Assembly: GCA_029548865.1 (NCBI GenBank)
Contig: JAKPMO010000015.1
Location: 10,482 to 74,481, forward strand
Reading direction: 5' to 3'
Origin: Caldisericota bacterium
GTDB taxonomy: Bacteria; Caldisericota; Caldisericia; JAAYUI01
DNA: 64,000 nt
Shown here: positions 22 to 19,959 of the stretch, in pieces
Numbering within the stretch: position 1 is the stretch's first letter
How the letters are laid out: every line of letters starts with the position of its first letter
Notes under the pieces: model-generated
Told to the model about the DNA's origin: nothing
The model's database searches: none
Seen by the model: the letters and a program-made list of their open reading frames with translations, nothing else
Translations under genes and position numbers: made by a program

Positions 22-1359
22 ATGACAGATCCAGCAAAAACACCTAAGGCGAAAGTGTCCTGGAAAGCAAAATGGATATTCTATACCTTGTTGATAGTCA
101 CCACAGTAATAATCGTAAATACCATTTCTTGCAATAAGAACAAAGCCTATAACGATAAAATACCCTATTCTATTGAGGTAAACGAAGCTCTTGGGGAAGT
201 CATACCGATTGACATATCAGCCAACATGTCTAATATGATGGTCCCACCATTCACAATTAACAAAAATGAATTAACCATATATTATGACTGGCGTTTAAAA
301 TCGGTTGCCAAGCATATAAAACTGCCAGGAGAGTATTTTGGATATTATCGACTTTATGTTATAGACGAAGATCAAGTTGATAACCCATTTATGATATACT
401 ATTTCTTTTTAAGCAAAACTCCTGATAATAATTACATATCTGTCTTGAAGCGTCCCGATAGGGAAGATTCTATTGGTGTTTATTTTGAGATGGAGAAGAT
501 TAAGGACATCTCAATAGGGGACCTGAATCTAATAGCTGTTGCAAAAAATGATGGAATAGAAAATTTCACATATGTTTGCCAGAACAAAAGCCAGACCAGC
601 GTGTCATTTTTTGATAAAAGTGGCATATTAAGAGAAAAAATGAACCTTCAGAGACCAACTGCCCTATCAAAATCCTTTGAACACGATAATGCATTAGACA
701 TCTATGGTTTTGACGGCAAAGATGTATTTTTCTATTCAATCGACAAGTACAGCTTGACCTTAAAACATAAAATCACCTTAAGAGACACTTATTCAAAAAT
801 ATTCAAGATATCACCCAGTGACAGACTCGTTGATGTCTGGAATAATTTGCAGTTATCTATATATGATGGGGAATATCTATACCTGCTTGATAATAAATAT
901 CTTAAAAAAACTTATAAATTTACCGATTTTAAAGGTTGTTCAATCGATCGCAGGTTCCTTTATGTCGATAACAAATTATTCTTCTCAGACATAAAAGATA
1001 ATATTTACAGTTTAAAGAGTAATGCTGACCAGTCTTACGTTAAAGACGGGGTTCTGGATACCAATAAAAAATTTGATCAAATATTTTCTTCAGGGTATGA
1101 TCTTATTCATTACTGCACAGGTTACTGGTCCGAGGAAGGCTATATATTCTCAATATATTATTACACAACTGACTCGCCTAAAAATGTTATATACAGGCAT
1201 AATTTTGGACCTTTCTCCAAAAAAATAACTTCTTTTTCTGAAGACAAGAGAACCCTGGTGCTATATAGCGAAACATTAATTTACTTTTATAATAAAGGCC
1301 CTGACTGGGAAGACGATCTTGAAATTATACCTCTAAATGAGAGTGCTTTAGATAAGTAG
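22..1359 (+). CDS. Membrane-anchored (N-terminal TM) Tyr/Asn/Lys-rich envelope protein, low GC. Member of a local paralog family sharing an 'LPGE(Y/V)' motif about 100 aa from the N-terminus.
   Basis: Complete ORF with GGGAGAG Shine-Dalgarno at 10-16 before the ATG at 22. Hydrophobic segment WIFYTLLIVTTVIIV. Motif KLPGEYFGYY at nt ~319-345. AT-rich codon usage unlike the neighbouring kinase gene. Confidence 0.5.
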   Translation: MTDPAKTPKAKVSWKAKWIFYTLLIVTTVIIVNTISCNKNKAYNDKIPYSIEVNEALGEVIPIDISANMSNMMVPPFTINKNELTIYYDWRLKSVAKHIKLPGEYFGYYRLYVIDEDQVDNPFMIYYFFLSKTPDNNYISVLKRPDREDSIGVYFEMEKIKDISIGDLNLIAVAKNDGIENFTYVCQNKSQTSVSFFDKSGILREKMNLQRPTALSKSFEHDNALDIYGFDGKDVFFYSIDKYSLTLKHKITLRDTYSKIFKISPSDRLVDVWNNLQLSIYDGEYLYLLDNKYLKKTYKFTDFKGCSIDRRFLYVDNKLFFSDIKDNIYSLKSNADQSYVKDGVLDTNKKFDQIFSSGYDLIHYCTGYWSEEGYIFSIYYYTTDSPKNVIYRHNFGPFSKKITSFSEDKRTLVLYSETLIYFYNKGPDWEDDLEIIPLNESALDK

Positions 1360-1600
1360 CCATTCCCAAGCAAAATTGCATTTTCTGATATACAAACAAG
1401 TGCAAGTGTGCTTACAAGCAGGAGTCAATACCCGCAAAAAACCAGCCCTTCGCTATCAACTATAACGATGCGGGAGTAAGCTGAGAGAATCACTTTTGGA
1501 TTTTTGGCCAGAAGGTCTTTTTTTATCCGCCATTTTTTCTTGCCGTTGTCACACTTAAAAAGTAATCTTCATTGGTTACTTTGTGATTAAACTCGCGGTC

Positions 1601-1626
1601 TTGCCAAGGCCGTTTGCCTTGGCAGG
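1601..1626 (+). promoter_or_regulatory. 8-bp perfect stem-loop (GCCAAGGC / GCCTTGGC) 20 nt upstream of the kinase start. Could be a terminator remnant of the upstream gene or a leader structure.
   Basis: The inverted repeat is seen directly in the sequence. No T-run follows it. Confidence 0.25.
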
Positions 1627-1648
1627 TTAAATGGTCTAAAATCTGGGC

Positions 1649-3304
1649 ATGGGTAGAATTCTTCTAGGAGCTGACTTCGGAACTTCCCAGGTAAATGTCG
1701 TGGCGCTTGATGTCAAAACTGGCCAGACAATAGGCTTTTCCTCATCACCATACAAATCCGGCGTGATCGAAAAAACACTTCCCGATGGCACAAAACTGCC
1801 CAGGGGTTTTGCCCTCCAGGACCCCTCCGACTGGCTGGAAGGGCTCTTTGAGGCCACAAAAAAACTGATCGAGGAAACCAGGATACCCGAGAAAGAGATA
1901 ATTTCCATCGGTGTCTCCTTCACAAGCTGCACTGTCCTTCCCGTTGATGTCTTTGGGACACCGCTTTGCATGATAGGCGACCTCTCAAAAAATCCCCATG
2001 CCTGGCCAAAGCTCTGGAGGCACACGACAGCACAGCCACAGGCCAATCTTTTGACCACAATCGCACAGGAGAGGGGCGAACCCTTCCTGGATTTTTATGG
2101 CGGAAAGATGGGCGCAGAGTGGCTCTGGCCAAAATTGCTGGAGCTTGTCCAGGAGGCACCGGAGCTTGTTCCGTCAATTGAATATTTCATCGAGGCAGGG
2201 GACTGGATTGTCTGGCAACTGACAGGCCATCAGGTCAGAAACCAGTGCGCGGCCGGATACAAGGCCTGCTGGGTCGAAGGTGTCGGTTATCCGGGTCACG
2301 ACTATTTTGCCTCGATTTCGCAGGAGCTGGCCGACCTCTCCGACAAGTCGAGGGGCATAGAGGTGCTGCCACCAGGAAGACCGGCCGGGAAGCTGATCAA
2401 GGACATGGCCGGGAAGATGGGCCTGAGGACTGGAATACCTGTCGCATCCGCAGTCATAGACGCCCAGTCTGCCGTCGCCGGCGCCGGTGTTTTCGAACCC
2501 AACATAATGACAATCGTGATGGGCAGTTCGAACTGCCACCTTGTCATGTCAAAACAGGAGAGGCTTTTTGTTGGATATGCAGGCGTCGTAAAAGACGGCA
2601 TCCTCGACGGATACTGGGGCTACGAGGCAGGCCAGCCGGCCATGAGCGACATGCTCGAATGGTTTGTGAACACCATTGCCCCAATATCGTTCTACGAGAG
2701 GGCAAACGAGGACGAAACCGAGTTTGCAACCATCCTGGACAGATACCTTTCCGAGGTGCCGGCAGGCTCAAACGGTGTCCTGGCGCTCGACTGGATGGGC
2801 GGCAACAGGAGTGTTCTTCTCGACTCGTCACTGAGCGGTGTTTTCGCTGGCCTGACGTTGCAGACAAGGGCCGAAGACATGTACAAGGCGCTGGCAGAAG
2901 CATCTGCATTCGGGACAAGAAAGATAATTGAAACATTCAGGGCTGGTGGCGTGGAAATCAAGCAGGTTGTCGCAACAGGCGCACTGCCAATCACCTCGCC
3001 CAGCCTCATCCAGATATATGCTGATGTATTGGGAATGCCAATCTCCGTTCCAGACACAAACAACGCAACCGGAAGGGGTGCCGCAATCATTGGCGGCCTG
3101 TCGGTCGGAATGGAAAAACTTGGCCATAAATCGCGGGAAAGCTATTTCAAGGCCCTGCTTCCACAAACCCTCGACTGGTGTAAACCACACGAGGCAAACA
3201 AGAAGCTTTACAACGAAATCTACAACGATTACCTGACGCTCCATGACATGTTTGGCGGGACCCAGAGGGTACTTGCAAGACTCAAGGAGAGGGGCAAGGT
3301 CTAG
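1649..3304 (+). CDS. FGGY-family carbohydrate kinase (ribulokinase-like pentulose kinase)
   Basis: 551 aa. The N-terminus LLGADFGTSQVNVVALD matches the FGGY N-terminal ATPase fold. Length and C-terminal glycine-rich region fit ribulokinase-type FGGY kinases. No araA/araD partner in the window. Confidence 0.8.
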   Translation: MGRILLGADFGTSQVNVVALDVKTGQTIGFSSSPYKSGVIEKTLPDGTKLPRGFALQDPSDWLEGLFEATKKLIEETRIPEKEIISIGVSFTSCTVLPVDVFGTPLCMIGDLSKNPHAWPKLWRHTTAQPQANLLTTIAQERGEPFLDFYGGKMGAEWLWPKLLELVQEAPELVPSIEYFIEAGDWIVWQLTGHQVRNQCAAGYKACWVEGVGYPGHDYFASISQELADLSDKSRGIEVLPPGRPAGKLIKDMAGKMGLRTGIPVASAVIDAQSAVAGAGVFEPNIMTIVMGSSNCHLVMSKQERLFVGYAGVVKDGILDGYWGYEAGQPAMSDMLEWFVNTIAPISFYERANEDETEFATILDRYLSEVPAGSNGVLALDWMGGNRSVLLDSSLSGVFAGLTLQTRAEDMYKALAEASAFGTRKIIETFRAGGVEIKQVVATGALPITSPSLIQIYADVLGMPISVPDTNNATGRGAAIIGGLSVGMEKLGHKSRESYFKALLPQTLDWCKPHEANKKLYNEIYNDYLTLHDMFGGTQRVLARLKERGKV

Positions 3305-3353
3305 CCCAATTTTCTGGTTTGTTTCCCTGCGTGGGTGTAAAAACAGGTCTATA

Positions 3354-3857: not shown

Positions 3858-3892
3858 AACAAACGGCACCATTTTTGTGTATAATGCATGAC

Positions 3893-4396: not shown

Positions 4397-4403
4397 GGCG
4401 GAG

Positions 4404-5351
4404 ATGAAAACAACCAGAATTTTTGTGGCACTTTGTGCAATACTTACTCTTCTTTCCTGTGGAACTGAAGAAAAACCATTGCCTCTCACTGAAACATATT
4501 TTGGTCCCTTCTACAGGATCGACTTCCCAAAAAACGCAAAAATTGAGCCTGTCGGAAACCTCACAAGCATAGTCACCGACAAATTTGTTGTTGAGGTAAA
4601 ATTAGAGCCTTCAGAAGGCCTCAAGCCGGGGGATTTTGGGGGAGTGGCCTTTTTGAAAGAACAGTCCCAAAAAATGGCAGACGAGCTTGGGGCAAAAGCC
4701 AGCTTTAGAGAGGCAAAACTTGGTGACGCACCCTGCCTCGTAATCGATATGACAGGCGAGAATATCGCATGGAAAAGGATTTGCGTTCCACTAAAAAACA
4801 ACATAGCCATGGTATCACTCAAAGAGCCTTTCGAGGGTGAAAAAGCTGCCGAATCGCCATTTTTCAAATCGGCCTCGGACATGATCATTTCTTTCAGAAT
4901 AACAGACAGCTCCTATCTTGGCTCTGAAACACCATCTCAAAATGGCAATGGGGGAGAAATAAAACTTGAAACGCGCTTTGAAAATGAAAACCTCTCCATG
5001 ATGCTCCCGTCAGGCTGGGAGGCCGGTGGAGACGGCGTTGTGCTTGTTTGTCCAAAAGACATTGCAAAATTCGACCAGGGTTTTACGGTAACGGTCTTTG
5101 GAGAAAACAGGGACCCTAAAAGTGCCTGCCAGTCAATGTCATCATCACTTTCAGGCGGTACAATCCAGAAAACAAGGATCGGAGGGAACGACTACTGGAT
5201 GTTCGAGTACTCAGTCGGGCAGACCAAAATGGTTTCGATGTTCTCGGGGCAAAAAGGAAAGGTTTTTCTTCTGTCTTCAACATCTTTTAATGGAAAACCC
5301 TCCAGGATCGCCGAAAAAATAATTGGAAGCATGTCTTTCAAGCATCCATGA
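4404..5351 (+). CDS. Lipoprotein, two tandem copies of the array domain
   Basis: MKTTRIFVALCAILTLLSCG lipobox, 7-nt gap to the previous gene. Internal ISFRITD and terminal SMSFKHP motifs. MMLPSGWEAGG motif. Confidence 0.65.
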   Translation: MKTTRIFVALCAILTLLSCGTEEKPLPLTETYFGPFYRIDFPKNAKIEPVGNLTSIVTDKFVVEVKLEPSEGLKPGDFGGVAFLKEQSQKMADELGAKASFREAKLGDAPCLVIDMTGENIAWKRICVPLKNNIAMVSLKEPFEGEKAAESPFFKSASDMIISFRITDSSYLGSETPSQNGNGGEIKLETRFENENLSMMLPSGWEAGGDGVVLVCPKDIAKFDQGFTVTVFGENRDPKSACQSMSSSLSGGTIQKTRIGGNDYWMFEYSVGQTKMVSMFSGQKGKVFLLSSTSFNGKPSRIAEKIIGSMSFKHP

Positions 5352-5466
5352 CTCATTACTATTTTGTTGAGATTTTATTAAGCTTTTAACGTCTTGAAAG
5401 AACAAATTCGCTTCATATGATGTATGTGCTTTTGAAAATCCCAAAAGGACAGAGAGGAGTCTCAAC

Positions 5467-6060
5467 TTGAAGAAATTTTTCGCAACTTTTATCATACTGG
5501 TGCTTGGCGTTGCCGTTTTCGCATCCTGCGGTGGCGGATCAAATGACGAGGGCACAAAGCCAGCCGACGAAGGCCAGAACATAGAACAGACAGAGAACCA
5601 GACCGGAAGCCAGAACAACGAACAGACCCCGGCCGCAACATTTGCCAACTATGCCGAGACCAAGCTACTCAAAATTGGCATTGCCGAGGGTTGGAAAAAC
5701 AATACTCCCGAAGCACCAAAGGATCAGCAGAATGGTGATATAGACATAATATCGCTTATGAGTGATGATGGGAAGGCAATTACCGTAACAAGTGTTAAAA
5801 CCGGAGAAATCCCTGTCAAGATAGAAGATTTTGTTGAACAAATGAAAAAAAATCTGGTCGAAAGCAAGGCAACTTCAATTGAAGAAGGTAAAGCTTCCTA
5901 CGCAGGCATTGACTACACTACACTTACTTTCAGCGTAGAAAACAACAAAGCAATAAGTCTTTTCGGAATTAAGGGTAACCAGGTTATCAATATTAGCCTT
6001 AATGGCACCGATATTGATGCCGAAATCGAAGGAATGCTCAATTCAGTCGAAACAAAGTAA
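5467..6060 (+). CDS. Lipoprotein, one array domain preceded by a Q/N/E-rich low-complexity linker
   Basis: MKKFFATFIILVLGVAVFASCGGGS lipobox, followed by a rho-independent terminator. Confidence 0.65.
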   Translation: MKKFFATFIILVLGVAVFASCGGGSNDEGTKPADEGQNIEQTENQTGSQNNEQTPAATFANYAETKLLKIGIAEGWKNNTPEAPKDQQNGDIDIISLMSDDGKAITVTSVKTGEIPVKIEDFVEQMKKNLVESKATSIEEGKASYAGIDYTTLTFSVENNKAISLFGIKGNQVINISLNGTDIDAEIEGMLNSVETK

Positions 6061-6080
6061 GAACCATTTTAAAGAACCAA

Positions 6081-6118
6081 CAAAAAAACCGGCTCAAAAC
6101 AGCCGGTTTTTTTGTTTT
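6081..6118 (+). terminator. Rho-independent terminator (CCGGCT...AGCCGG followed by a T-run)
   Basis: Hairpin ~6089-6106 followed by TTTTTTTGTTTT. Confidence 0.6.
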
Positions 6119-6172
6119 AATGACCTTTGACAAGCCAATTTTTGGGACTACTTTTTATGCGGAGGAATTTGA

Positions 6173-7126
6173 ATGAAGAAACTTGTTGCTTTTTTGCTGT
6201 TGGCCCTCTTTGCCATTTCCTGTGGCGGACAACCACCCACAAAACATGATGGCGGATGGTTCGAGATAGAATATGACCAGGGCATGAAAACTCTTGCCGA
6301 GGGTGATACATTCATGGTTTTTGATGATGAAATATTTATGAAAGTCCAGCCAAACATGGACTATTCAAACACCGAGAAGATTGAGGTCGCAAGACAATCT
6401 GCAAAACAACTCGTGGAGAGCATGAGCAAAGATACATCAAACACCGTGACCGAAAGGGAAAGCAAATGCGGCTCGATTCCATGTATCTGGGTTGAAGTTG
6501 AAAACAAAAACCAGGGCACAGGCGGCTTGATAATGTATGTACCAATACAAAATGTCGTTGTGTGGGTGGGCCTGGCACAACCAGTTAATCTTAAAACCGG
6601 CATGGACAAAGCCAGAAGAATTGCCGAAAGCTTCAGGATCAAGGACGAGGGTTATTTCAAAAACAGGGTGGAAGATTTCGCCAAGAATTACAATGTCAAT
6701 GGATCATCAAAGACAATCGAAACTGAGACATTCTCTATAACACCAGCAAAAGAGTGGGCAGGGGAAAAAGACCTGAAAAACAGCAATGTCAGGTTGCGCC
6801 TGCTTCCTGACAGCACAAAAGCAAAACAGACACCCTACGCACCAAACATAGAGGTTGGGATCATGGACAAAGGGCAAATGGCACTGGAGGAGTTCCTGGA
6901 ATCATTCAAAAATGCAATGGTAAACAAAGACAAGGTCGCTGGCCCAAAACCGTTCAAGTTTGCCGAAATGATGTATTACAGGTATGATTTGCCAGCAAAA
7001 AAAGACGGTGCCCCACTTATGTATATTGTTGGCGAAAAAGATGGCAAGATAATAAAAGCCCTGATTGCAGGGGAATTAAGCGGAGACATCGAAACGATGC
7101 TTGAAAGCATCAAGATAAAAAAATAA
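6173..7126 (+). CDS. Lipoprotein, two array domains (internal ...ESFRIKDEGYF, terminal ...ESIKIKK)
   Basis: MKKLVAFLLLALFAISCGG lipobox. GGAATTTGA-ATG context. Confidence 0.65.
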   Translation: MKKLVAFLLLALFAISCGGQPPTKHDGGWFEIEYDQGMKTLAEGDTFMVFDDEIFMKVQPNMDYSNTEKIEVARQSAKQLVESMSKDTSNTVTERESKCGSIPCIWVEVENKNQGTGGLIMYVPIQNVVVWVGLAQPVNLKTGMDKARRIAESFRIKDEGYFKNRVEDFAKNYNVNGSSKTIETETFSITPAKEWAGEKDLKNSNVRLRLLPDSTKAKQTPYAPNIEVGIMDKGQMALEEFLESFKNAMVNKDKVAGPKPFKFAEMMYYRYDLPAKKDGAPLMYIVGEKDGKIIKALIAGELSGDIETMLESIKIKK

Positions 7127-7138
7127 GGAGAGAAAAAA

Positions 7139-8092
7139 ATGAAAAAACTCCAAAACATTCTGCTGACAGTCATCATAGGGTTGACCCTTATTTCATGCGG
7201 AAAAACCACACTGGACGAAACTTATGAAGGGCCCTATTTCAGCATAAGCCACCCGGGTTCCTGGAAGGTCGAGGAAAATCCGTCTCTGACAACAATCAGT
7301 GGGGACGGCGTTGGAATAATGATCGAGTCCGTTCCAAACGAGCAAATAAAAGCAAATGATGTTGCCGAGATCAAGACATATTCAGACCAGCTCCTCAAAG
7401 AGCTTGGTGGAAACGAGGACTTCGACCTCTCAACCGAGGAGAAGGAAATAAATGGCCAGAAGGGTGTCTGGCTCTTGGCAAAGAGCAAGAAGGAAGAAAA
7501 GGGCGGGTTTATGTTCATTACGGCCGTCGACAAGGCCGTCCTCATGGTTGGTGTTGGCGCGGAGGTCGAAGGGCAGGAGAAGCTCGATCTTGTAAAAATG
7601 GCCATTGAGTCCTTCAAGATAACAAAACCTGACTACTTCACAAAAAAAGAGCCTGAAAAAAAGGACACCGAAACCACTCCAAAAACCGAAGAGACAAAAT
7701 TTGGCCAGCCGCTTGTGGCAGAAAAAATTACAATCACACCGCTTGAGGGTTGGACTTCCAAATATGAAAAACTCACCAGTACAATAACATTAACAAATGC
7801 GGCCAACAGAACGTTCTCGATGGTGATACTTGATCGCCAAGGAATGAAAAAGGACGACTATACAAAAAGCTTAAGAGAAGGCCTTAAGCAAAGTGCTGAT
7901 TTGAAGGTAAAAGAATCAACCGAAAAAATTGGTGAAATCGAATATGACAGGATTGATTTTTTGACAATGGATGGCAGAACCGCTATGACCGACCTTGTTG
8001 GAGAAAAAAACAACATCATGATAGTGATAATGATCCAGGATGGTCTCTCAAGCGACATACAAAAGATGCTTGAAACTATAAAAACAAACTAG
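7139..8092 (+). CDS. Lipoprotein, two array domains (internal ...ESFKITKPDYF, terminal ...ETIKTN) with a K/E/T-rich linker
   Basis: MKKLQNILLTVIIGLTLISCG lipobox. AGGAGAGAAAAAA-ATG ribosome-binding site, 12-nt gap to the previous gene. Confidence 0.65.
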   Translation: MKKLQNILLTVIIGLTLISCGKTTLDETYEGPYFSISHPGSWKVEENPSLTTISGDGVGIMIESVPNEQIKANDVAEIKTYSDQLLKELGGNEDFDLSTEEKEINGQKGVWLLAKSKKEEKGGFMFITAVDKAVLMVGVGAEVEGQEKLDLVKMAIESFKITKPDYFTKKEPEKKDTETTPKTEETKFGQPLVAEKITITPLEGWTSKYEKLTSTITLTNAANRTFSMVILDRQGMKKDDYTKSLREGLKQSADLKVKESTEKIGEIEYDRIDFLTMDGRTAMTDLVGEKNNIMIVIMIQDGLSSDIQKMLETIKTN

Positions 8093-8113
8093 GCCACAAT
8101 TTCCCTGCTGCAA

Positions 8114-8147
8114 CAAAATGCCCTCTCTTTTGAGGGGGCATTTTTTA
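8114..8147 (+). terminator. Probable rho-independent terminator after the lipoprotein at 7139-8092
   Basis: ATGCCCTC...GAGGGGGCAT imperfect hairpin followed by TTTTTT. Confidence 0.5.
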
Positions 8148-8272
8148 TGGATAAAAATCACGATATGGGATGTATGATGTATTGATGCGACTAAACCATC
8201 ACTTAATTGTTTGGATAAAATACGATGTTGACATATATAGCTATGATTGCAAAATAGGTCTCTTGGAGAACA

Positions 8273-10562: not shown

Positions 10563-10574
10563 TTTTATCAATAT

Positions 10575-11453
10575 CTACTGTTCACTGACAATCAAACCGA
10601 GTCCTGCAAGCGAAACTTGGGCAATCTCAGAAAATAGAAGCACCGAAAATGATGCCCAGGGCTGCACATCAAAACCATCAAAGACAACCGATAATTTTGT
10701 GTTCTCGCCCTCTTGGAAAAAGGAGAACCTTAAGGAAAGCGGAGATGCTGGTGAGAAAGGATTGTCTTTTGCAACAAGCGTTATCCTGTCGCTTTCAAAT
10801 TCAGAAACAACCCCATGAAGCAAAATATTTCCCCATGGCCTCTGCCATGCAATCTGGAACTGGCCGCTCTCCCTGGCTTCAATCTGGACCATGTCGGCAA
10901 GCCACTTCACGGCCTCATCGGCACGCAAAAGCATCGACCTGAGAGTGTCTGGTGTCGCCTTTATAATTGTTGATGCCTCGATTGATCTTGTGCCAGAAAC
11001 ACATTTTTCAGGCTCTTTTCCAAAAAACTTTGTCAACATGGCCATTTTTGTGTAGGCCCATGATGAGGCGGAAAGCAGGGGGGCGTCCCCGGTGTGCGTC
11101 AGATCAAACCCTGACAATTTGAGCTTGCATATCTCCCCAAATTCGAACTGTACGGCTAACTCGAAGAGGTCAGGCCTGTGGTGCCACGGATTGCCCTCAA
11201 AAATTGCCTTCAGGCTCTCATACTGCCTGGATTCCTGGGTTTCTATATGCCACGAGGCCGAGAAACTTGGTTCAAGGCCCCATATTTGCCCTTCACAGCC
11301 TTCAATTGTTGAAATTTCCAGGCCCTCACCCCAAGCCCTGGCAAGTTTGGCCTTGTCATTAAATAACTCCCAGACTGTCGGCACGAGGATGCCAAGATTT
11401 GAGACCACTTCAATTGAGCGCTGGCCCTGGGGCCTGTAGAAGCCCTTTGTCAT
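10575..11453 (-). CDS. Cytoplasmic protein, possibly SRPBCC/AHSA1-like tandem-domain fold (low confidence)
   Basis: 292 aa, no signal peptide. Its start overlaps the upstream transglutaminase-like gene stop by 4 nt (ATGA). Confidence 0.45.
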   Translation of the reverse strand: MTKGFYRPQGQRSIEVVSNLGILVPTVWELFNDKAKLARAWGEGLEISTIEGCEGQIWGLEPSFSASWHIETQESRQYESLKAIFEGNPWHHRPDLFELAVQFEFGEICKLKLSGFDLTHTGDAPLLSASSWAYTKMAMLTKFFGKEPEKCVSGTRSIEASTIIKATPDTLRSMLLRADEAVKWLADMVQIEARESGQFQIAWQRPWGNILLHGVVSEFESDRITLVAKDNPFSPASPLSLRFSFFQEGENTKLSVVFDGFDVQPWASFSVLLFSEIAQVSLAGLGLIVSEQ

Positions 11454-12202
11454 ATCATTCTCAATCTCGATACATTCTTTGTGATCGATGGCGAAACAAC
11501 TGTCGAAAAAATAAAGGACTGTACCTTCTTTGGTATGTGTTCAGCAAAAATTTCTTCCACGTTAGTATGAACACCAAGATCCTCAAGAACACATGTGGAC
11601 TGGCAGAAAGTGTCACTCTCGCCATCCCAGTTCTCTATGTCTTTTGAGAGAACAAGGAGCGGCCTCTTGTCTGCAACCCCAAGACTGAAGCATGGCCTGT
11701 CATCATTGAGTATTGTTGAAAGCTTTTCCAGATACATCCTGTCCAGGACAACCCCCTCAAGCGTTATCCACCTGCCCTTCAGGTGGATTTCTGGCATGAG
11801 GTGGACCATGGTCTTCGGAACAAACCTCTCGACGATACCCACATAAAGCCCCTTCAGGTACGAGCTGTCGGCGATGGAAACCTTGAACCTCGCTGGTATC
11901 CTGGCAAGTCTCATCATGGAGACAAGGCAAACGGATTTTGAAACCGAGTCCCCGCCACCTGTCGCAAGTACTTGCGACGCCTTGGTCAAGATTGACGGCG
12001 GCAACATGAAAACCAGGTTGTCTTTGACAAAATGGTAGATCACTCTTGCGGCGTCATTTGGATTTGTTACACCGCCCAGTATCGATTCGGTCATCTGCAC
12101 GACGGACTTTGAAGACAGGTCGCAAAGCTCCGATTCCTCAAGATACTCCCCAAAACCGACAGGGCCCTCCCATGGTAAACTCAACAAATCAAGCGTCTTC
12201 AT
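11450..12202 (-). CDS. Transglutaminase-like cysteine-protease superfamily protein
   Basis: Motif GGGDSVSKSVCLVSMMRLARIPARF matches the transglutaminase-core Cys nucleophile region followed by R(L/A)xGIPAR. The ATG at 12202 sits next to GGAGG; the tool ORF extends 5' from a TTG. Confidence 0.55.
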   Translation of the reverse strand: MKTLDLLSLPWEGPVGFGEYLEESELCDLSSKSVVQMTESILGGVTNPNDAARVIYHFVKDNLVFMLPPSILTKASQVLATGGGDSVSKSVCLVSMMRLARIPARFKVSIADSSYLKGLYVGIVERFVPKTMVHLMPEIHLKGRWITLEGVVLDRMYLEKLSTILNDDRPCFSLGVADKRPLLVLSKDIENWDGESDTFCQSTCVLEDLGVHTNVEEIFAEHIPKKVQSFIFSTVVSPSITKNVSRLRMI

Positions 12203-12361
12203 CCTCCCTAATTTATCCCCCAAGCTGGATAAGTTCAAGTGGACCCGTGCAAAACCAAGATTCTTAAAGCAATGACAAATGCTGTTCCATAAAGCATTCT
12301 GAAGTGTCCAAAAAAACATATCCTGTTTTTCCGTGTCAAAAATGCCATGGAAAGGAGTATT

Positions 12362-13507
12362 ATGAAGAAATTCGCTGTTTTGACAGTATTATTCATGGTT
12401 CTCGCCCTCCCACTCATAGGCTGTGGAAGCGGCGATGGGGCAAATAGTGGCGGCACAGACACTGGCAAGCAAGTGGCAACACACCAGGACTGGCCAATGA
12501 TGATGGGGAACATGTCAAGGACTGGCACCGCAACAGGTGGAATCTCGGCCCAGCCGGCAATCGAGAAGGCGTGGGAGTTTGAATCAAAGGAACCCCTGAG
12601 GGGCCAACCGGTTGCATCAAACGGAAAAGCGTACTTTGGCAGTGACAAGCTTTATTGCCTGGACATCCCGACAGGCAAGGAAGAATGGAGCTTCCAGGCA
12701 GACGCAAAAATCTGGAACACACCGTGCATCTCTGGCGAGAAGATTTATTTTGCCGATGAAGCTGGAAAGTTCTACTGTGTGAACACCAGGTCAAAAAACC
12801 CGGTCTGGACATCAAAGTTCTCCTCAAAGATCGAGTCTTCACCAGCAGTTAGTAGTGGAGTGGCATTCTTTGGCGACATGGGCGGCAACTTCCACTGCCT
12901 GAACGCCGACAGCGGCTATGAATACTGGAGCTTCAAGGCCGGGAGGGGAATCGCCTCTGCACCGGCCCTGCTGGATGGCAAGGTCTATTTTGGCTCGCAG
13001 GACCAGAAACTGTACTGCCTCAACCAGGAAACTAGCGAGCTGGTCTGGGAGAGCAAGACCGATGACGGAATAGTCAACCCGGTTGTTGCCTCGTCCGGAA
13101 AAGTCTGGGCAATCGTTGGTGACGCCAATCTGGTCTGCTTCGATGCACTCACTGGCGCAAAGCTGTGGACATTCAAGAGCGGCGACAAGGTGACCGCACC
13201 AGCCGTTTACGACCAGTTTGTCTTTACAGGCTCGGACTTAGACACCTTCTATTGCCTGAATATTGCAGACGGCAAGGAAGTCTGGAATGCACCCGTTGGT
13301 GACAACGTGTTTGGCTCACCAGCAATCTGTGGCGACAAGGTGTTTTTCGGCAGCGACAACAAGACGCTCTACTGCATGGACGCAAAAACCGGCAAGGAGC
13401 TTGCAAAGCTGGATTGCGGCTATCCGATCAACGCAAACATCGCAATCTCTGACGGCACCATCATCACCTGCACCGACGGGAAGGTGCTCTGCTTTACAAT
13501 CAGGTGA
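12362..13507 (+). CDS. PQQ/BamB-like beta-propeller repeat lipoprotein
   Basis: AAAGGAG-N5-ATG. MKKFAVLTVLFMVLALPLIGCGSG lipobox. Repeated (K/Q)(L/V)YCL(D/N) ... GKE(V/L)W blades. Confidence 0.75.
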   Translation: MKKFAVLTVLFMVLALPLIGCGSGDGANSGGTDTGKQVATHQDWPMMMGNMSRTGTATGGISAQPAIEKAWEFESKEPLRGQPVASNGKAYFGSDKLYCLDIPTGKEEWSFQADAKIWNTPCISGEKIYFADEAGKFYCVNTRSKNPVWTSKFSSKIESSPAVSSGVAFFGDMGGNFHCLNADSGYEYWSFKAGRGIASAPALLDGKVYFGSQDQKLYCLNQETSELVWESKTDDGIVNPVVASSGKVWAIVGDANLVCFDALTGAKLWTFKSGDKVTAPAVYDQFVFTGSDLDTFYCLNIADGKEVWNAPVGDNVFGSPAICGDKVFFGSDNKTLYCMDAKTGKELAKLDCGYPINANIAISDGTIITCTDGKVLCFTIR

Positions 13508-13530
13508 GACCCTATTCTGTTCTTTTGGAC

Positions 13531-13560
13531 AAAGCCTCCTCGATTACCGAGGGGGCTTTG
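13531..13560. terminator. Probable bidirectional terminator hairpin between convergent genes
   Basis: AGCCTCCTCG...CGAGGGGGCT stem (1 mismatch) flanked by T- and A-rich runs. Confidence 0.45.
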
Positions 13561-13572
13561 TCATTTATCAAA

Positions 13573-14892
13573 CTATTTTTCTTCATATTCTGGCCCAAGA
13601 TCCATCTTGATAAGATCGTATTGGCCTTCTGCTGTATTCATGTAGTCACATTCCCAAACAGAATCTTCTGTGTAAAAATAGATTTTGTATGAGAGAAACA
13701 GAACGTTTACAACTTTTCCAGGGATTTCCCTGTAAGAATGTTTTCTAAACAATCTATTTTGGTTATCCCGGACTGTTTGCATATCATAGACCAACGTGGA
13801 ATCTGGATTGTATTGGCAAAAGTAATAAAGACTGATATCCGGAGTCCGTACATATGACAATGGTTTATAATCAACCTCGAACAATCTACTTGCAATAAAA
13901 TCTCCAGCATTATTCATACGGCTGTCAAATACACGCTTAGTACTTATATAAAACATAGCATTACTACCAAAATAGAACTCGTAATCAAGTTGCTTTGTGA
14001 AAGTTGTATCCAGGAACTCTCTTGAATAAATTACTGATTTATTGAATCTATCTATAAGATGGATCGCTTTACCATCATACAGACTGAAAAGCCAACCATA
14101 ACCATATCCCTCAAGGCTATTCAAATCATTAATTACACTCTTTGTTAAATCACCTTCCGTTCCCAGGTCTATTTTAAAATCAACAAGTAACTGGCCATCA
14201 ACAAACTTGTAAAAATAAACAATTTTGCCATCGTATCCGACCATTGTTGGTGACGTAGGGCTGAATTCGTTGTATCTCAGATCTGCAAAAAGCATTGGTG
14301 ATTCAAGAGATTTTATATGCCCTGTTTTCCCCCACGGATCACTTAGATAAAGCAACTTATTGTCATTTGACTGGCAGACAAGCAGAGCTTTATGATCCTT
14401 GTCATTATGAGAAATTGATATTATTTTATCAGCTTTTGTTGAGAAACTGGCTGATTTTGTCTCGTTTGCATTACCTTTTATTAGATTAGAATAATCAAAC
14501 TGATATAGAACAATTGTATTAGAGGTGTTGCCGCGACACAAGAATACTAAATAGTTTTTATCGTACTCACTATTGTGATATCCCCCAGATTCTGTCGTGG
14601 TTGTTGAGTTATTTTTTAGGGAATATGACAAAACTTCACCAGGCAGGTTGATTGTTTTGACTGGTTGCTGCAACAGTGGATCTTTGTATGTTGTTACCTC
14701 TTGGTCATTTACGAGTATTGGAAAAAACAATTCACGATGAACCTTTCCCTCATCGCTCAAGATACCAATTATTTTCCCTGGAGGTCTCTTATCGGACACA
14801 AGTTTGACCTCATATGGTTTTGCAAAGGAACAAGATGAGCAAAACAAAAATATAACCCCAAACAAAGATAATCCCCTGGACATTTTTTTCAT
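13573..14892 (-). CDS. Secreted Tyr-rich protein, low GC, LPGE-motif family member
   Basis: Signal peptide MKKMSRGLSLFGVIFLFCSSCSFA. Motif NLPGEVLSY ~85 aa from the N-terminus. Strongly AT-rich relative to the flanks. 19 nt downstream of the membrane protein gene at 14911-15888. Confidence 0.55.
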   Translation of the reverse strand: MKKMSRGLSLFGVIFLFCSSCSFAKPYEVKLVSDKRPPGKIIGILSDEGKVHRELFFPILVNDQEVTTYKDPLLQQPVKTINLPGEVLSYSLKNNSTTTTESGGYHNSEYDKNYLVFLCRGNTSNTIVLYQFDYSNLIKGNANETKSASFSTKADKIISISHNDKDHKALLVCQSNDNKLLYLSDPWGKTGHIKSLESPMLFADLRYNEFSPTSPTMVGYDGKIVYFYKFVDGQLLVDFKIDLGTEGDLTKSVINDLNSLEGYGYGWLFSLYDGKAIHLIDRFNKSVIYSREFLDTTFTKQLDYEFYFGSNAMFYISTKRVFDSRMNNAGDFIASRLFEVDYKPLSYVRTPDISLYYFCQYNPDSTLVYDMQTVRDNQNRLFRKHSYREIPGKVVNVLFLSYKIYFYTEDSVWECDYMNTAEGQYDLIKMDLGPEYEEK

Positions 14893-14910
14893 TTTGTCTC
14901 CAATAATATA

Positions 14911-15888
14911 TTAGTTCTCCCCGGCCTCATCGCCCTCAAGCGCTGAACTTGTCCTTCCAGTAAGAGAAAGGATGCAGTATATCGCCAGCCCGGCAATGCC
15001 CAGAAAGCCCAGAACAAGCGCGGCCCACTCGTCTCCGGAGAGGAACCCGAAGCCTGTCGAGGTGTGGACGCTTACTAGTGTCCACGTTGAAACTTCAAAA
15101 CCCTGCACCAAAATTTCGTAGATCATATACGCAAGCCCAAGCAAAACCGGGTAAGCCATCAGCCTTGAGAGCCAGACCGTGGCAAGGGCAAAGCACAGGA
15201 CAAGGATCTTCACAAAAAGCTCTGTTTCAAAAGGCACGGCAAATGTTGCTGCGACGCATGCCACAACAAAGACTGTCGCAAGAAGCATTTTGACAAGCGC
15301 ATTGCCCTTCTTTGCCGGCTTCTCTGCGGATGCCTCCCTGACATTCTCCCTGACAGCATTTGCGGCCTCCTGCCAGGGGCCTCTTCCGGTAAAGATGATC
15401 ATGACATTGCGCCATGTGTTGCGGAGCGTTATCCTGCCGCGTTTTTCATTGTAGAGTACCTGGTTGATGTTTTTCCACGGAACATAGATTGTCTCTTGCG
15501 ATCTGGCAAGGAGCCCAGCGCCGGCCGCCTGGCCACCGCCCAGGAACCCGGCGCCGATTGCGACCCTGTTTGCCATTTTCACCCTTCTGTCCAGCGTTTC
15601 GAAGGTGGCGCCCTCGGAATCAAGCGTGTATTTTATGTGGTAGGAGTTCCGGAAAACAATCAGCATGACGAGGGCAGAAAGCACCATCAGACCGCCGACA
15701 ATCAGCGCAAACATCCAGACAATCTGGAGAAATCCCTCCATTTCGCCCTGGAGCAGAAAAATAAAGCCCATAAGCAAAACAACGATGAGATAGGTCAGAC
15801 CAAAACCCTTGAGTATGTCGGTGAGTATCGCCGTGTTGGCCAGGAGTGGCACCTTTATTTCCCACGAAATATTCTTGCTGTTTTCCAT
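14911..15888 (-). CDS. Polytopic membrane protein of unknown function
   Basis: 325 aa with multiple hydrophobic helices and a Gly/Ala-rich loop. Likely co-transcribed with 13573-14892. Confidence 0.55.
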   Translation of the reverse strand: MENSKNISWEIKVPLLANTAILTDILKGFGLTYLIVVLLMGFIFLLQGEMEGFLQIVWMFALIVGGLMVLSALVMLIVFRNSYHIKYTLDSEGATFETLDRRVKMANRVAIGAGFLGGGQAAGAGLLARSQETIYVPWKNINQVLYNEKRGRITLRNTWRNVMIIFTGRGPWQEAANAVRENVREASAEKPAKKGNALVKMLLATVFVVACVAATFAVPFETELFVKILVLCFALATVWLSRLMAYPVLLGLAYMIYEILVQGFEVSTWTLVSVHTSTGFGFLSGDEWAALVLGFLGIAGLAIYCILSLTGRTSSALEGDEAGEN

Positions 15889-16057
15889 TATCTGCTCCTT
15901 TGTTTTTGTGGCCGTTTTCTAAAAAAATGATAGCCCAGCCCGCAAGGAAAGTAAACTTTTTGGGAACAAATCTGGCCAGAGCAAGCACGGGAAGGCGCAA
16001 CAGACAAAACGCCAAAACGCCCCGTATAAGAAATCAAATAACACAAGGAGGCAGAAG

Positions 16058-16807
16058 ATGAAGAAAATAGCAATATTTTTGGCCATTGCCAGTCTGGCAG
16101 TTGGCGCCTCATGGATACCACAAGCAAGAGCAGACGGGACAAGCGAGATAATAAGCAACCTCCCAGGGGACGCACAATGCCAGTTTGAGGTCTGGTGGAG
16201 AAAGGACCCGGGGACAACAATCGTCAATGAAGGCAAAACAGCAACGTTCAAGTTTGGGATCACCAACTGGGAATATCCGGACAAAATGCACTTTGTCATC
16301 ACAACATCAGACAAAAACATCCAGTTCCAGAAGACCGATTTCTACTCAAACGAGACTTTTATGGAGATGACAATCACGATCACAATGCCAAAGAGGCAGT
16401 CTGGCCAGAAGGTCGCCTACTGGAGCTTCAAGATCACCTCCGACTGTGGCAGGCATTATTCGGTCAAATTCCATGTCCACTACCCGGAGGAATGCTGCTC
16501 CTACAAGACATCCTGGGAAAAGGAGCCTGCAAGCTTCAAGGTTGCCCAGAACAAAACCTGCTCGTTCAAATTTGTGGTGGAAAACAAATGCAGCGAGGCC
16601 CCAATCGATTTCCAGCTCTCAAGCAACATATCATCACTCGGTTTTTCCAGAAAAAGCTTCACTGTCCAGCCCGGGAAAAAGTTTGAAATCACCGTGACCA
16701 TCAAACAGCCGTCCCAGGGTGGCAAGTCAAAATCGGACTGGAGCTTCAAGATAAAACCGGCATGCGGGCAGGAAAAGCAGATCAGTTTTAGTGTAAAATA
16801 TCCATAA
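16058..16807 (+). CDS. Secreted protein with two internal repeats each ending WSFKI...CG...(F/Y)SVK(F/Y)...YP (Ig-like?)
   Basis: AGGAGG-N6-ATG. Signal peptide MKKIAIFLAIASLAVGASWIPQARA. Repeats AYWSFKITSDCGRHYSVKFHVHYP and SDWSFKIKPACGQEKQISFSVKYP. Confidence 0.6.
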   Translation: MKKIAIFLAIASLAVGASWIPQARADGTSEIISNLPGDAQCQFEVWWRKDPGTTIVNEGKTATFKFGITNWEYPDKMHFVITTSDKNIQFQKTDFYSNETFMEMTITITMPKRQSGQKVAYWSFKITSDCGRHYSVKFHVHYPEECCSYKTSWEKEPASFKVAQNKTCSFKFVVENKCSEAPIDFQLSSNISSLGFSRKSFTVQPGKKFEITVTIKQPSQGGKSKSDWSFKIKPACGQEKQISFSVKYP

Positions 16808-16825
16808 TTTCAAAGAGACTTGGTG

Positions 16826-16858
16826 GAAAAAGCGGGGTTTTGCCCCGCTTTTTTTATT
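16826..16858 (+). terminator. Rho-independent terminator
   Basis: AAAGCGGGGTTTTGCCCCGCTTTTTTTATTTT. Confidence 0.65.
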
Positions 16859-16875
16859 TTTGGAGGGAGGGTAAG

Positions 16876-16930
16876 ATCTTATTGTTATAAAATCTGGATT
16901 GTTGTATATTGCCCTTTGAGGTGGCGCGAC
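16876..16930 (+). promoter_or_regulatory. Copy 1 of a duplicated ~52-bp promoter/leader element (TTGTTA-N17-TATATT followed by GAGGTGG)
   Basis: Near-identical to 18262-18316. Contains sigma70-like -35/-10 boxes with a 17-nt spacer and a Shine-Dalgarno-like GAGGTGG. Confidence 0.55.
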
Positions 16931-16938
16931 AATAACTA

Positions 16939-18156
16939 ATGCCAAAAAAACATTTACCAATATATAAGCATGCAATATTACTTCTAGTTGGGACAACACT
17001 ATTACTATTTCCGAAGAATACAGGTTCCAATAATACATTACCCACAAAAAAAGTGATATTCAAATCTGAATATATGATAAATAATCCATTTATTAATTCT
17101 AGATACATTGTCTGGTCCCAACATATCAAAGACGAGAGCGGCATCACTTACAAAATATTATCTTTTGATACAATTACAGGCAACTTAATAGAAGTCGCTA
17201 CCGATGATTCTTTGATGGAGATGCCGGGCGATAACAACATTTATCTGGGGATAGCTCATTGTTGTTGGATTAATATTGAGGGAAAGGGAGCCAATGCGTT
17301 TGTAATAAAGGGTAGCAAGGTTTATAATAATCGTTCTGAAATAAAAATCTCCAAAGGAAGACTGCCTTGGAAGAATGCCAATGTTTATAACAGCTATGTG
17401 ACGTATGTTGAAGCAAATGATGAAAATCTGTGCTCGTACGTTGTTGATTTATCAGAAATACAGCCAAAATACATTTTGCTTACTCAAAAAGCACGCGTTT
17501 CTACCACACCCAGGTTATCCCATAACCAAGTAGTATATGAAGCTACTGATGATGATGGTAATCCTTCTATATTTCTATATGATCTAGACAGGGGTACTTC
17601 TTTGAAAATATCACAAGATACTTTTCTTGCATCTAACCCTCACGTTACAAAAAATTATGTCTATTATTTATCCAGTTCCACTTCAAATGATACTGTAAAT
17701 GTAATGTGCTATGATATTAAGAACCATGAATACACCAATATTTATCAATTAAAAAAGGGGCTTCATATTAGCCTAATAAATAACCCTGATAGTGATCTAC
17801 TCATGTTTAGTACCCAGGGTGATGATCATGGCACTCCAAATATTATGTGCTACGATCCTTTTACAAAAAAAGTACTTTGCCTTGATAAATATCTTTCTGA
17901 GATAAATATGCCTGGTTCTATTGAACTCAATAGTGGATGCTCACAAGCTAGGGATATAGTTTTAATTGTAAAGAACGTTTTATTGATATTGAACGTTGAT
18001 AATTATGGGTCTATTAGCTGCAAATACATTGATAAATCAACAAATGGATCGATGAAAAAGCGCCTTGCAAGGATTTACTGCAATAATATAATTTGGGTAG
18101 AATCTCCAAATGGTAGCAGCATCTCACAACTATATTGTTTGTCATTGAGCAAATAA
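16939..18156 (+). CDS. Membrane-anchored extracytoplasmic protein, probable beta-propeller (TolB/DUF5050-like repeats?), low GC
   Basis: N-terminal TM helix AILLLVGTTLLLF. Recurring YV(T/Y)Y, VVYEATDDDGNPSIFLYDLDRG and DLLMFSTQGDDHGTPNIMCYD repeats. The annotated ATG lies 17 nt after the GAGGTGG, so the true start may differ. Confidence 0.45.
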   Translation: MPKKHLPIYKHAILLLVGTTLLLFPKNTGSNNTLPTKKVIFKSEYMINNPFINSRYIVWSQHIKDESGITYKILSFDTITGNLIEVATDDSLMEMPGDNNIYLGIAHCCWINIEGKGANAFVIKGSKVYNNRSEIKISKGRLPWKNANVYNSYVTYVEANDENLCSYVVDLSEIQPKYILLTQKARVSTTPRLSHNQVVYEATDDDGNPSIFLYDLDRGTSLKISQDTFLASNPHVTKNYVYYLSSSTSNDTVNVMCYDIKNHEYTNIYQLKKGLHISLINNPDSDLLMFSTQGDDHGTPNIMCYDPFTKKVLCLDKYLSEINMPGSIELNSGCSQARDIVLIVKNVLLILNVDNYGSISCKYIDKSTNGSMKKRLARIYCNNIIWVESPNGSSISQLYCLSLSK

Positions 18157-18261
18157 AACCTAAAGGGTTTTCTACCAACCTTGGAAGACAACAAAAAACT
18201 GTTTATTTCTACACAAATCGTGGGGTGTACAAATACCAGGAAAAATGATTCAAAATCAATC

Positions 18262-18316
18262 TCTTGCTTATTGTTATAAAACCTGGATTGTTGTATATTG
18301 CCTTTTGAGGTGGCGC
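18262..18316 (+). promoter_or_regulatory. Copy 2 of the duplicated promoter/leader element, immediately upstream of the ATG at 18318
   Basis: CTTATTGTTATAAAACCTGGATTGTTGTATATTGCCTTTTGAGGTGGCGCG-ATG. Differs from copy 1 at about 2 positions. Confidence 0.55.
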
Positions 18317-18317
18317 G

Positions 18318-19661
18318 ATGGACGGGGAAATGGAAGAGAAAAAACAGTTAGGATGGAAGGCAATTCTCAAGGAAATGCTTAAGCTAGTTCTTATTTTTAT
18401 ATTCATAATAACAACTGGGATTACCCTGATTGCTCTATGCTCTACGAATACAGACAACGACTTTTTTAACAAAATTAGAGAATTTTTCCAGCCAAAATTT
18501 ACCTATAAAGATTTTGCTCGACTTCCAAATACCAGCTTTTTGTTCAACCAACAATATCTGGGAGTGCTTGAGGTGGAGAATGATTTGACAGAATACATCG
18601 GCTTTGGAGATATCTTTCATCCAGTTTATTCATCTGGCAACAAGATTTTGATTTATCAGGACCAGAACCTTGAACAAGTTGCAAGAGAAATTGAACTCCC
18701 TGGGAATGTAATTGGTAAATCATTTGTTTATTTCTACGATAAAGACAATTCTAGCGCCAGCAATTGGCAATACTACTTTTTGACCCAAAATAATGGCAAG
18801 AATCATATCACAGCTTTCTTGAGCAACAGGTCTAACAATGAGCCACAATATGATCTTCAGCAAAAATTTTCAATTGAGACAAAGGGGACAAAGATAGTTC
18901 CGATAGAAGATTTTGATAATTTTCTTGCGTGCATAGATAATGAAGGCAAGACACTAACTGTTTACAAATCCAGTGGAGAGGTTTTTTGCAATAAAACATT
19001 TGCCAAAAAATCTGCATTTTTCATGATTGGCAAAAATGTTGTCCAATATGATGGCCAGAAGCTGGTTTTATTCACAATTGACAAAAATGATGTTCTCCAG
19101 AAAACAAGCATTTTACTGCCTGATAAAGGGGACGTCTCCAAAGCATCACTTGATGGTGAGAAACACTCAGAAAAGACGTGCTTTACAGACGGTTCAAATG
19201 CGTATTATCTTGATGAATATTTCAACTATATCGAGAAAGCCCCCTTTAAGGATGTGGAGAAATCCCTTTGTGAAGGAGATTTCCTTGTCTGCAAAGATAA
19301 ACTTGTGTCCAATATTCTATTTTCAAATACAGACACTGGCAACAAACCCCACTTCTACACTTTCGAATCTTCAACAGTTTTCAATGACAGGTTCAATTAT
19401 GCACTGCCTTTATTATATTGTTACAAAGTTTTTATGTTGGTAAAAAATAACCTGTTCACATTCTCACCGGTATTTGTATGGAGCAATATAAGAGAAAATC
19501 AAAAAGTGACATATTATGTTTACAGGATGCAAGGTACCCCATTTGGAAGGGTGAAAGGTTTCTTTTTGAAAAACCACAGTGAATTGTTCAAAGTATACGA
19601 GGTCGCATATTTTTATACGGACCACGGGGTCTACCGCTTCAAGGAAGTGACAGAAGACTAA
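18318..19661 (+). CDS. Membrane-anchored Tyr/Phe/Lys-rich protein, LPGE-motif family member, low GC
   Basis: N-terminal TM LVLIFIFIITTGITLIAL. Motif EIELPGNVIGKSFVYFYD. Confidence 0.5.
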   Translation: MDGEMEEKKQLGWKAILKEMLKLVLIFIFIITTGITLIALCSTNTDNDFFNKIREFFQPKFTYKDFARLPNTSFLFNQQYLGVLEVENDLTEYIGFGDIFHPVYSSGNKILIYQDQNLEQVAREIELPGNVIGKSFVYFYDKDNSSASNWQYYFLTQNNGKNHITAFLSNRSNNEPQYDLQQKFSIETKGTKIVPIEDFDNFLACIDNEGKTLTVYKSSGEVFCNKTFAKKSAFFMIGKNVVQYDGQKLVLFTIDKNDVLQKTSILLPDKGDVSKASLDGEKHSEKTCFTDGSNAYYLDEYFNYIEKAPFKDVEKSLCEGDFLVCKDKLVSNILFSNTDTGNKPHFYTFESSTVFNDRFNYALPLLYCYKVFMLVKNNLFTFSPVFVWSNIRENQKVTYYVYRMQGTPFGRVKGFFLKNHSELFKVYEVAYFYTDHGVYRFKEVTED

Positions 19662-19713
19662 TAATTCTTGCTACTGATCCCTGCCTATGATTGGGGCAGA
19701 AAAGGGCTGATTC

Positions 19714-19866
19714 TCACTCGCTCTCGTACACAAGGATGTCGTGCGAGCAGGCCGGGCAGACAGGAACAGGCTTGCCCTCCTGGACCATGATCTTGTATCC
19801 GCACTTCTTGCAGACGTAGTAGCCAGTCTGCGGGGCGGTTTCACCAGCTTTTATTGTGCAAACCAT
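19714..19866 (-). CDS. Small Cys4 zinc-ribbon protein (rubredoxin-like fold, ~50 aa)
   Basis: AAAGAGGAGGAGAG-ATG ribosome-binding site. YVCKKCGY...CPACSHD gives two CxxC pairs. A TATAAT-like box lies ~25 nt upstream. The tool ORF extends further 5' without a ribosome-binding site. Confidence 0.5.
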   Translation of the reverse strand: MVCTIKAGETAPQTGYYVCKKCGYKIMVQEGKPVPVCPACSHDILVYESE

Positions 19867-19911
19867 CTCTCCTCCTCTTTTTATTTTTATTATAGCAAAT
19901 AGTTCCCAAAA

Positions 19912-19942: not shown

Positions 19943-19959
19943 AACCAAAAGGAGGAATT

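Follow-up and report, generated by a model that had tools for sequence, protein, structure and literature searches.

Strain-variable alleles in a Caldisericales family of membrane-anchored, probably beta-propeller proteins

The window analysed here is a 64,000-nucleotide stretch of contig JAKPMO010000015.1 (positions 10,482 to 74,481) from the Caldisericota bacterium assembly GCA_029548865.1. Three of its open reading frames (ORFs), low in guanine plus cytosine (GC) and hereafter called A, B and C, can be assigned to one family of predicted membrane-tethered proteins. Across related genomes the family genes remain in fixed slots between conserved neighbours, and the alleles found in a slot may be as little as 30% identical. 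The reading that we favour, with a probability of roughly 0.5, is that A, B and C are variable binding proteins exposed at the cell surface and that homologous recombination exchanges their alleles. The three genes, together with two ORFs of similar composition (D and E), are as follows.

A: 22-1359, plus strand; 445 amino acids; N-terminal anchor ending in TISC; KLPGEY at residue 101; predicted propeller body; 541 bits against the family hidden Markov model (HMM).
B: 13573-14892, minus strand; 439 amino acids; lipoprotein-type signal peptide (LFCSSC); NLPGEV at residue 83.
C: 18318-19661, plus strand; 447 amino acids; signal-anchor helix at residues 13-44; ELPGNV at residue 127; predicted propeller body.
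D: 16939-18156, plus strand; 405 amino acids; low GC, anchored, unrelated to the family.
E: 29954-31288, minus strand; 444 amino acids; lipoprotein (LVGC lipobox), not of the family.

A family of three distant paralogues

The coordinates given for these ORFs by the initial annotation of the sequence were right. It had also contrasted a GC content of about 35% with 50-55% in the neighbours; the first figure holds (A, 33.6%; B, 35.8%; C, 36.2%), whereas the genes neighbouring the low-GC ORFs lie at 43-54%, mostly below the range claimed. D has 33.5% GC and E deviates only mildly (41.5%), the whole window being at 45.9% and the gene mean at 45.3% (standard deviation 5.0). The GC profile is therefore not uniform. 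GC at third codon positions (GC3) is also low, at 30-39% in A to D and 41% in E against a gene mean of 49.7%, so A to D stand apart in their codon choice and not in amino-acid content alone. Tyrosine accounts for 6.0-8.3% of residues in A to E vs. 1.0-4.5% in their neighbours, and A, B and C are rich in Tyr, Phe, Asn, Lys and Asp.

The proposal that A, B and C form a family was borne out, as their similarity is significant beyond composition. By composition-corrected BLASTP, A and B are 22% identical over 426 amino acids (E-value 1e-9), B and C 23% over 252 amino acids (6e-9), and A and C 24% over 186 amino acids (2e-7); we read them as true but distant paralogues. An HMM trained on A, B and C together with their relatives from databases matched exactly these three ORFs in the six-frame translation of the window. 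The family alignment has in common Y.D..L.....I.LPG, a conserved Cys-Gln, GYDG, DG and a C-terminal YFYT..VW/Y. The LPG motif noticed at the outset is real: [LIVM]PG occurs at residues 60-140 in most of the 40 members aligned, with a nearly invariant Gly.

Neither BLASTP nor phmmer nor hhalign linked D and E, noted earlier for a similar composition without the motif, with the family or with one another. Since the hhalign matches to the family profile were confined to the signal peptide or to a 20-residue stretch, both were dropped from the family, and by their sequences they are compositional look-alikes only.

Allele replacement in fixed slots

The window was compared with syntenic loci from related metagenome-assembled genomes (MAGs) and metagenome contigs (L004-L011 and L014-L016). 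The family was found in the same syntenic slots of all the related MAGs, each paralogue in a fixed slot between conserved genes: A lies between CorA and FGGY kinase genes (neighbours at 48-54% GC), B between a PQQ-like propeller gene and a membrane protein gene, and C next to a conserved surface protein of 2290 amino acids. Across strains the slots hold alleles at 30-65% identity, mosaics, extra tandem copies or unrelated low-GC cassettes. Troughs in binned identity profiles coincide with the family genes, and divergence starts and stops inside or just outside the gene.

In L009 (GCA_017992475.1), C is 39% identical to the window C and essentially unalignable with it in DNA, high identity ending at 18358 and restarting at 19713. 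The left flank is 99.94% identical over 10,041 nucleotides (window 8318-18358) and the right flank 98.96% over 9,999 nucleotides (window 19713-29711). The PEGA, transglutaminase, PQQ propeller, B, membrane, immunoglobulin-like (Ig-like) and D proteins are all at 100%, a figure to which the 2290-residue protein rounds. The two flanks are thus unequal, and the lower identity of the right one hints that the recombination tract bringing in the other C allele extended rightward.

L007 has neighbours at 90-98%, B at 55% and C at 85%, and L005 has neighbours at 92-98% and A at 64%. In L006 the neighbours are at 94-98% and C is at 40%, and B is replaced by the following gene, whose product matches PLDc_2 (3e-29) and is DrmC-like in PADLOC.

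PLD-family nuclease-like protein in the B slot of L006 (MAG UR.bin110): 1439-2185, minus strand; 248 amino acids; 36% GC; signal peptide.

Three allele classes, mutually 30-40% identical, were distinguished in slot C: one in L009-L011 and L014, another in L006, L015 and L016, and a third in the window, L004, L007 and L008. Common to all three are the first ~8 codons (MDGEMEEK) and the final strands (YFYT.[HR]GVY[RK][FY]). Because each class is present in several independent assemblies, an assembly artefact was rejected. A metagenome scan with the core of the promoter described below recovered only three contigs, all repeating known allele classes.

For swapped alleles the synonymous divergence (dS) is ~1 or higher and mostly too saturated to estimate, vs. 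0-0.55 in the neighbouring genes. Vertically related alleles have ratios of nonsynonymous to synonymous divergence (dN/dS) of 0.19-0.32, about threefold higher than in the neighbours (0.02-0.17). In sliding windows the proportion of synonymous differences (pS) alternates between 0 and 0.5 within C and B, and these swings point to intragenic recombination and hence to mosaics. All alleles in these slots are intact ORFs of low GC (33-37%), which, with a dN/dS of 0.15-0.32, indicates that they are functional. The family genes are under purifying selection overall, somewhat relaxed. With dN/dS well below 1, their divergence is mainly the product of allele replacement and mosaicism and not of fast evolution in place.

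Near-identical flanks enclosing highly divergent alleles at the same position, the hallmark of a replacement-type hypervariable locus, were thus found. As far as sequence comparison can tell, such a pattern fits a cell-surface protein that varies between strains, and an ordinary housekeeping gene would not show it.

Distribution and absence from family databases

Word-indexed searches of 5.8 billion proteins returned only 3-5 matches per paralogue, all hypothetical, and at E-values up to 1e-3 a HMMER profile search against 1.84 billion cluster representatives found 44 matches, nearly all of 400-470 amino acids. The exact A protein also occurs in GCA_035421045.1 (contig DAOLWD010000009), where it bears the name of a Caldisericia bacterium MAG protein. 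All named family members are from Caldisericales, and the three genome matches are all Caldisericales or Caldisericia MAGs. No Pfam or NCBIfam family was assigned to A, B or C by profile scans, the PADLOC and PHROGs models of anti-phage defence and phage proteins gave no usable family for them, and a Pfam scan of 40 members yielded a single stray match (DUF5711, in 1/40).

Propeller profiles were equally unproductive. There were no matches to PQQ_2/BamB (PF13360) among A, B, C or the 40 members at E-values up to 0.01, whereas the neighbouring gene 12347-13507 matches it at 1e-40. The WD40, Kelch, TolB-like, DUF5128 and other Pfam/NCBIfam propeller repeat profiles left the family unmatched except for stray sub-threshold matches, and a profile search of PDB sequences returned only a hemopexin blade (4e-6) plus noise. 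Literature searches found nothing on the family. Judged from these searches, it is restricted to Caldisericales and previously undescribed.

Membrane anchor and predicted fold

All three window proteins have the hydrophobic N-terminal segment that had been described as an anchor or signal peptide. Among the N-termini of 43 members, 16 have a PROSITE lipobox ([LVI][ASTVI][GAS]C after a hydrophobic stretch), 22 a hydrophobic anchor only and five neither; A (TISC), B (CSSC) and C (IALC) have near-miss lipoboxes. The family proteins are thus predicted to be membrane-tethered through an N-terminal signal-anchor helix or a lipoprotein signal peptide.

The AlphaFold2 model of C, made from a 43-sequence alignment, has a mean predicted local distance difference test (pLDDT) of 80.5 and a predicted template modelling score (pTM) of 0.77, with a long N-terminal helix (residues 13-44) followed by ~31 strands. 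The model of B, from 11 sequences, is all-beta (pLDDT 70, pTM 0.71). Most of the top structural matches of C, at 5-11% identity, are eight-bladed propellers, namely Sif2, Sqt1, Cdc4, Fbw7, BamB, NirN/NirF/cytochrome cd1 and the designed Ika8. Foldseek agrees with a propeller (BamB at 9e-8, WDR41). The toroid of four-stranded antiparallel sheets and the match to solved structures are those of a beta-propeller, and the body of the family proteins is probably one with eight blades. The LPG motif lies, in the model of B, at a turn between two early strands, and it looks structural rather than catalytic.

Caldiserica are without lipopolysaccharide (LPS) genes and are among the lineages that lost the outer membrane (PMC5007114; bioRxiv 10.1101/2021.05.31.446380). 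Since they appear to lack an LPS outer membrane, an anchored propeller would face the cell wall or the exterior.

D, a duplicated promoter and the remnant of a family gene

The initial annotation had asked whether the family is associated with a duplicated promoter element. The duplication is real, but it joins C to the non-member D, and A and B are without it.

Promoter/leader copy 1: 16878-16929, plus strand; 52 nucleotides; TTGTTA-N17-TATATT, then the Shine-Dalgarno sequence GAGGTG; upstream of D.
Promoter/leader copy 2: 18267-18318, plus strand; 96% identical to copy 1; ends at the A of the ATG of C.
Hairpin and T-run: 16832-16855, plus strand; GCGGGG-TTTTG-CCCCGC-TTTTTTT, read directly from the sequence.
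Ig-like gene: 16058-16807, followed by the hairpin.
Family-gene stump: 18162-18248, plus strand; the last ~28 codons, KGFSTNLGRQQKTVYFYTNRGVYKYQEK and a stop, immediately after the stop of D.

The 52-nucleotide element reads as a sigma-70-like promoter with a Shine-Dalgarno sequence, and copy 1 ends nine nucleotides before the ATG of D (16939). It is the only direct repeat of at least 25 nucleotides in positions 1-32000, where none would be expected by chance, and a search of the window allowing up to three mismatches gave no copies beyond these two. The hairpin was not listed by a consensus scan; it has the look of an intrinsic terminator, and D would then be transcribed separately.

D, which is 85% identical in L006, has matches short of the curated cut-offs to the beta-propeller repeat TIGR04275 (4e-7) and, weakly, to TolB. 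In L004 and L007 the alignment leaps from 16929 to 18271 and 18267, respectively, so D and one repeat copy are missing there; the two copies bound an insertion or deletion of D that distinguishes two related MAGs from the window. In DNA the stump is 87% identical to the 3' end of the C allele of L009 type. D therefore occupies the site of a former second, tandem family gene, of which only the promoter and the last ~28 codons have escaped replacement. Tandem pairs of family genes are found elsewhere, in L005, L012, L013 and L017.

Interpretation and alternative explanations

In the mechanism that we propose, alleles would be swapped within the lineage by homologous recombination. The homology arms would be provided by the flanking genes and by conserved parts of the slot itself: the promoter with the first codons at one end and the last ~30 codons (YFYT..GVY) at the other. 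The propeller, facing the cell wall or exterior given the apparent loss of the LPS outer membrane, would act as a binding or recognition module, and its variants would be kept by selection favouring diversity. Phages or other surface-targeting agents, or niche-specific ligand binding, are candidate sources of that selection. The low GC would be the signature of a shared, horizontally circulating pool of alleles and not of import from another phylum.

Several points weigh against this reading. Surface exposure, ligand and function of the family proteins are inferred only. A propeller fold, generic as it is (5-13% identity to every match), says nothing about activity. Only about six related genomes were compared. 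Positive selection is not demonstrated, because sliding windows of nonsynonymous and synonymous differences (pN/pS) along the genes gave no segment with a convincing dN/dS above 1, and relaxed constraint combined with recombination could give the same picture. The distant member in L019 is not low in GC.

The proteins might instead be conserved envelope scaffolds like BamB, YxaL or Rv3035 that dock on a membrane machine, their divergence being the neutral drift of a tolerant fold. We regard this as improbable, since drift cannot yield 39% identity within 20 kb of DNA that is 99-99.9% identical. Slots that tolerate loss and non-homologous replacement are also unlike those of an essential scaffold, and the PQQ_2/BamB profile that the gene at 12347-13507 matches so strongly leaves the family unmatched. 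That the genes are recently acquired foreign DNA, or low-GC leftovers of mobile elements under no special selection, would agree with their GC3 (30-39% vs. ~50%), with the coming and going of D and the PLD gene between strains, with the family-gene stump, and with the low-GC ParA/ParB genes beside the family genes of L013, which might be an element. This is nevertheless quite improbable, given that the slots are the same in all related MAGs, that the alleles are all intact and under purifying selection (dN/dS 0.15-0.32) and that the family occurs in Caldisericales only. No integrase or transposase emerged when the genes surrounding A to D and the large genes farther along were scanned with Pfam, and the sole tRNA gene lies more than 30 kb from C.

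The least probable of these explanations is that the proteins confer immunity to polymorphic contact-dependent toxins, or are the targets of such toxins, with the dispersed copies as orphan immunity genes. It draws on L013 (1154-9293), in which a tandem pair of family genes starts 20 nucleotides after the gene for a 1798-amino-acid RHS-repeat protein; ParB/ParA genes at 36% GC come next, and one member of the pair is 66% identical to A. The C-terminal region of this RHS protein is hydrophobic and glycine-rich, and the arrangement may represent a toxin link or a low-GC element. In L017 an RHS/YD-shell gene lies ~7.6 kb from two members. Toxin-immunity modules typically show strong allele diversity and low GC, as the family does. 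However, none of A, B and C adjoins an RHS or other recognisable toxin gene, a close RHS link is seen in only one of ~10 distinct contexts, immunity proteins are usually small and adjacent to the toxin, and the Pfam matches of the members at E-values up to 0.01 include no polymorphic-toxin immunity family. A further candidate, the target of a diversity-generating retroelement, was rejected: alleles differ along their whole length, there is no template/variable repeat pair (the promoter element being the sole repeat of at least 25 nucleotides in 1-32000), and the scanned neighbouring genes contain no reverse-transcriptase domain.

Returning to exchangeable surface-binding proteins, the initial suggestion of a rapidly evolving exported family or cell-surface variation comes close to what we favour, with anchored propellers whose alleles differ hugely between near-identical genomes, except that the divergence is mainly allele replacement. 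Its alternative of horizontal acquisition survives in part. Alleles appear to move by recombination within the lineage (dS is saturated in the gene and 0-0.4 in the genes beside it), but import from another phylum is not supported, because every named relative is from Caldisericales and the copies occupy fixed syntenic slots. A bacteriocin-like role, also raised, was rejected on size and anchoring: these are anchored proteins of ~440 amino acids with no Pfam, NCBIfam, PADLOC or PHROGs family.

A bolder and unlikely extension is that the slots serve for single-gene cassette exchange, the conserved 5' and 3' ends letting strains swap propeller ectodomains, and occasionally unrelated exported cassettes, for surface identity. 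If so, the exchange would create strain-specific surface identities used in kin/non-kin recognition or in the evasion of phages or contact-dependent toxins, and the RHS-linked copies would tie the propeller family to intercellular antagonism.

Relation to known systems

BamB/YfgL-type lipoprotein propellers, including the Gram-positive and mycobacterial look-alikes YxaL and Rv3035, are a close known system. The family differs from BamB in lacking a PQQ_2/BamB profile match, with structural alignments at 6-11% identity, and in having multiple paralogues per genome, extreme allelic variation and a dispensable slot; its Caldisericales host is also probably without an outer membrane, hence without a BAM complex for docking.

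Replacement-type flexible genomic islands and hypervariable surface loci include O-antigen and S-layer loci and the 'metagenomic islands' of population genomics. Like these, the family slots have conserved flanks, sharply bounded divergence, low GC and products that are predicted to be envelope-exposed, and their allele classes coexist in the same kind of habitat. Here, however, each unit comprises just one gene of ~1.3 kb, with a promoter of its own and with boundaries inside the gene ends, and at least three slots within 20 kb hold one protein family, occasionally an unrelated cassette. The family resembles Rhs/polymorphic-toxin loci in its high allele diversity and in the one related contig with an RHS gene followed by two family genes. 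It differs from them in that no toxin gene adjoins the window copies, and its proteins are large, anchored, predicted propellers and not small immunity proteins.

We therefore see a new protein family with a known population-genomic behaviour and not a new principle, since other bacteria offer well-known examples of hypervariable envelope loci between conserved flanks. The family adds a propeller covered by no database model. The phylum Caldisericota, almost uncultured although abundant in anaerobic digesters, is poorly known, above all in its surface biology. Because near-identical genomes differ almost only at these genes, the family provides a computable marker of strain-level surface diversity in Caldisericota, useful for strain tracking in digester time series, and its genes are good candidates for phage receptors, recognition molecules or niche-binding proteins.

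Other features of the window and other contexts

B lies only 18 nucleotides downstream of the following gene, with which it is thus probably co-operonic.

Membrane protein gene: 14911-15888, minus strand; 325 amino acids, multi-pass, no known family; directly upstream of B; 94-100% conserved across loci.

E has a Kelch_4 match at an E-value of 0.008, below the cut-off. Outside the syntenic loci, members are low in GC relative to their own contigs in L012, L017 and L018. Family genes lie near large surface proteins with a Cu_amine_oxidN1 domain in the window, L012, L017 and L019, a proximity that may be due to chance, as such proteins are common in these genomes.

Envelope proteins abound across the whole window. 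At 4404-9316 lie five successive lipoprotein ORFs that have an [SC]G lipobox and match no Pfam family; the two adjacent 317-residue lipoproteins among them (6173-7126 and 7139-8092) are distant paralogues (22% identity, 4e-16). Very large predicted surface proteins are clustered at 19960-26832, 32620-43391 and 56852-63901. Three large surface proteins carry multiple PQQ/BamB-like propellers and Ig-like domains, 32620-34788 having Cu_amine_oxidN1 in addition, and two proteins of ~2300 amino acids carry Glucodextran_B domains, with Cu_amine_oxidN1 also in 19960-26832. A 596-residue Peptidase_S9 protein of the prolyl oligopeptidase family (49648-51438; 39% GC, GC3 33%) is unrelated to the propeller family. 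Genes for a BlaI-like repressor, a BlaR1/M48-like peptidase and an HtrA protease (26969-29814, minus strand) are highly conserved across the related MAGs. Finally, the tRNA gene mentioned above is a tRNA-Ser (GGA) at 52773-52864 on the minus strand, and several spurious overlapping ORFs are its translations.

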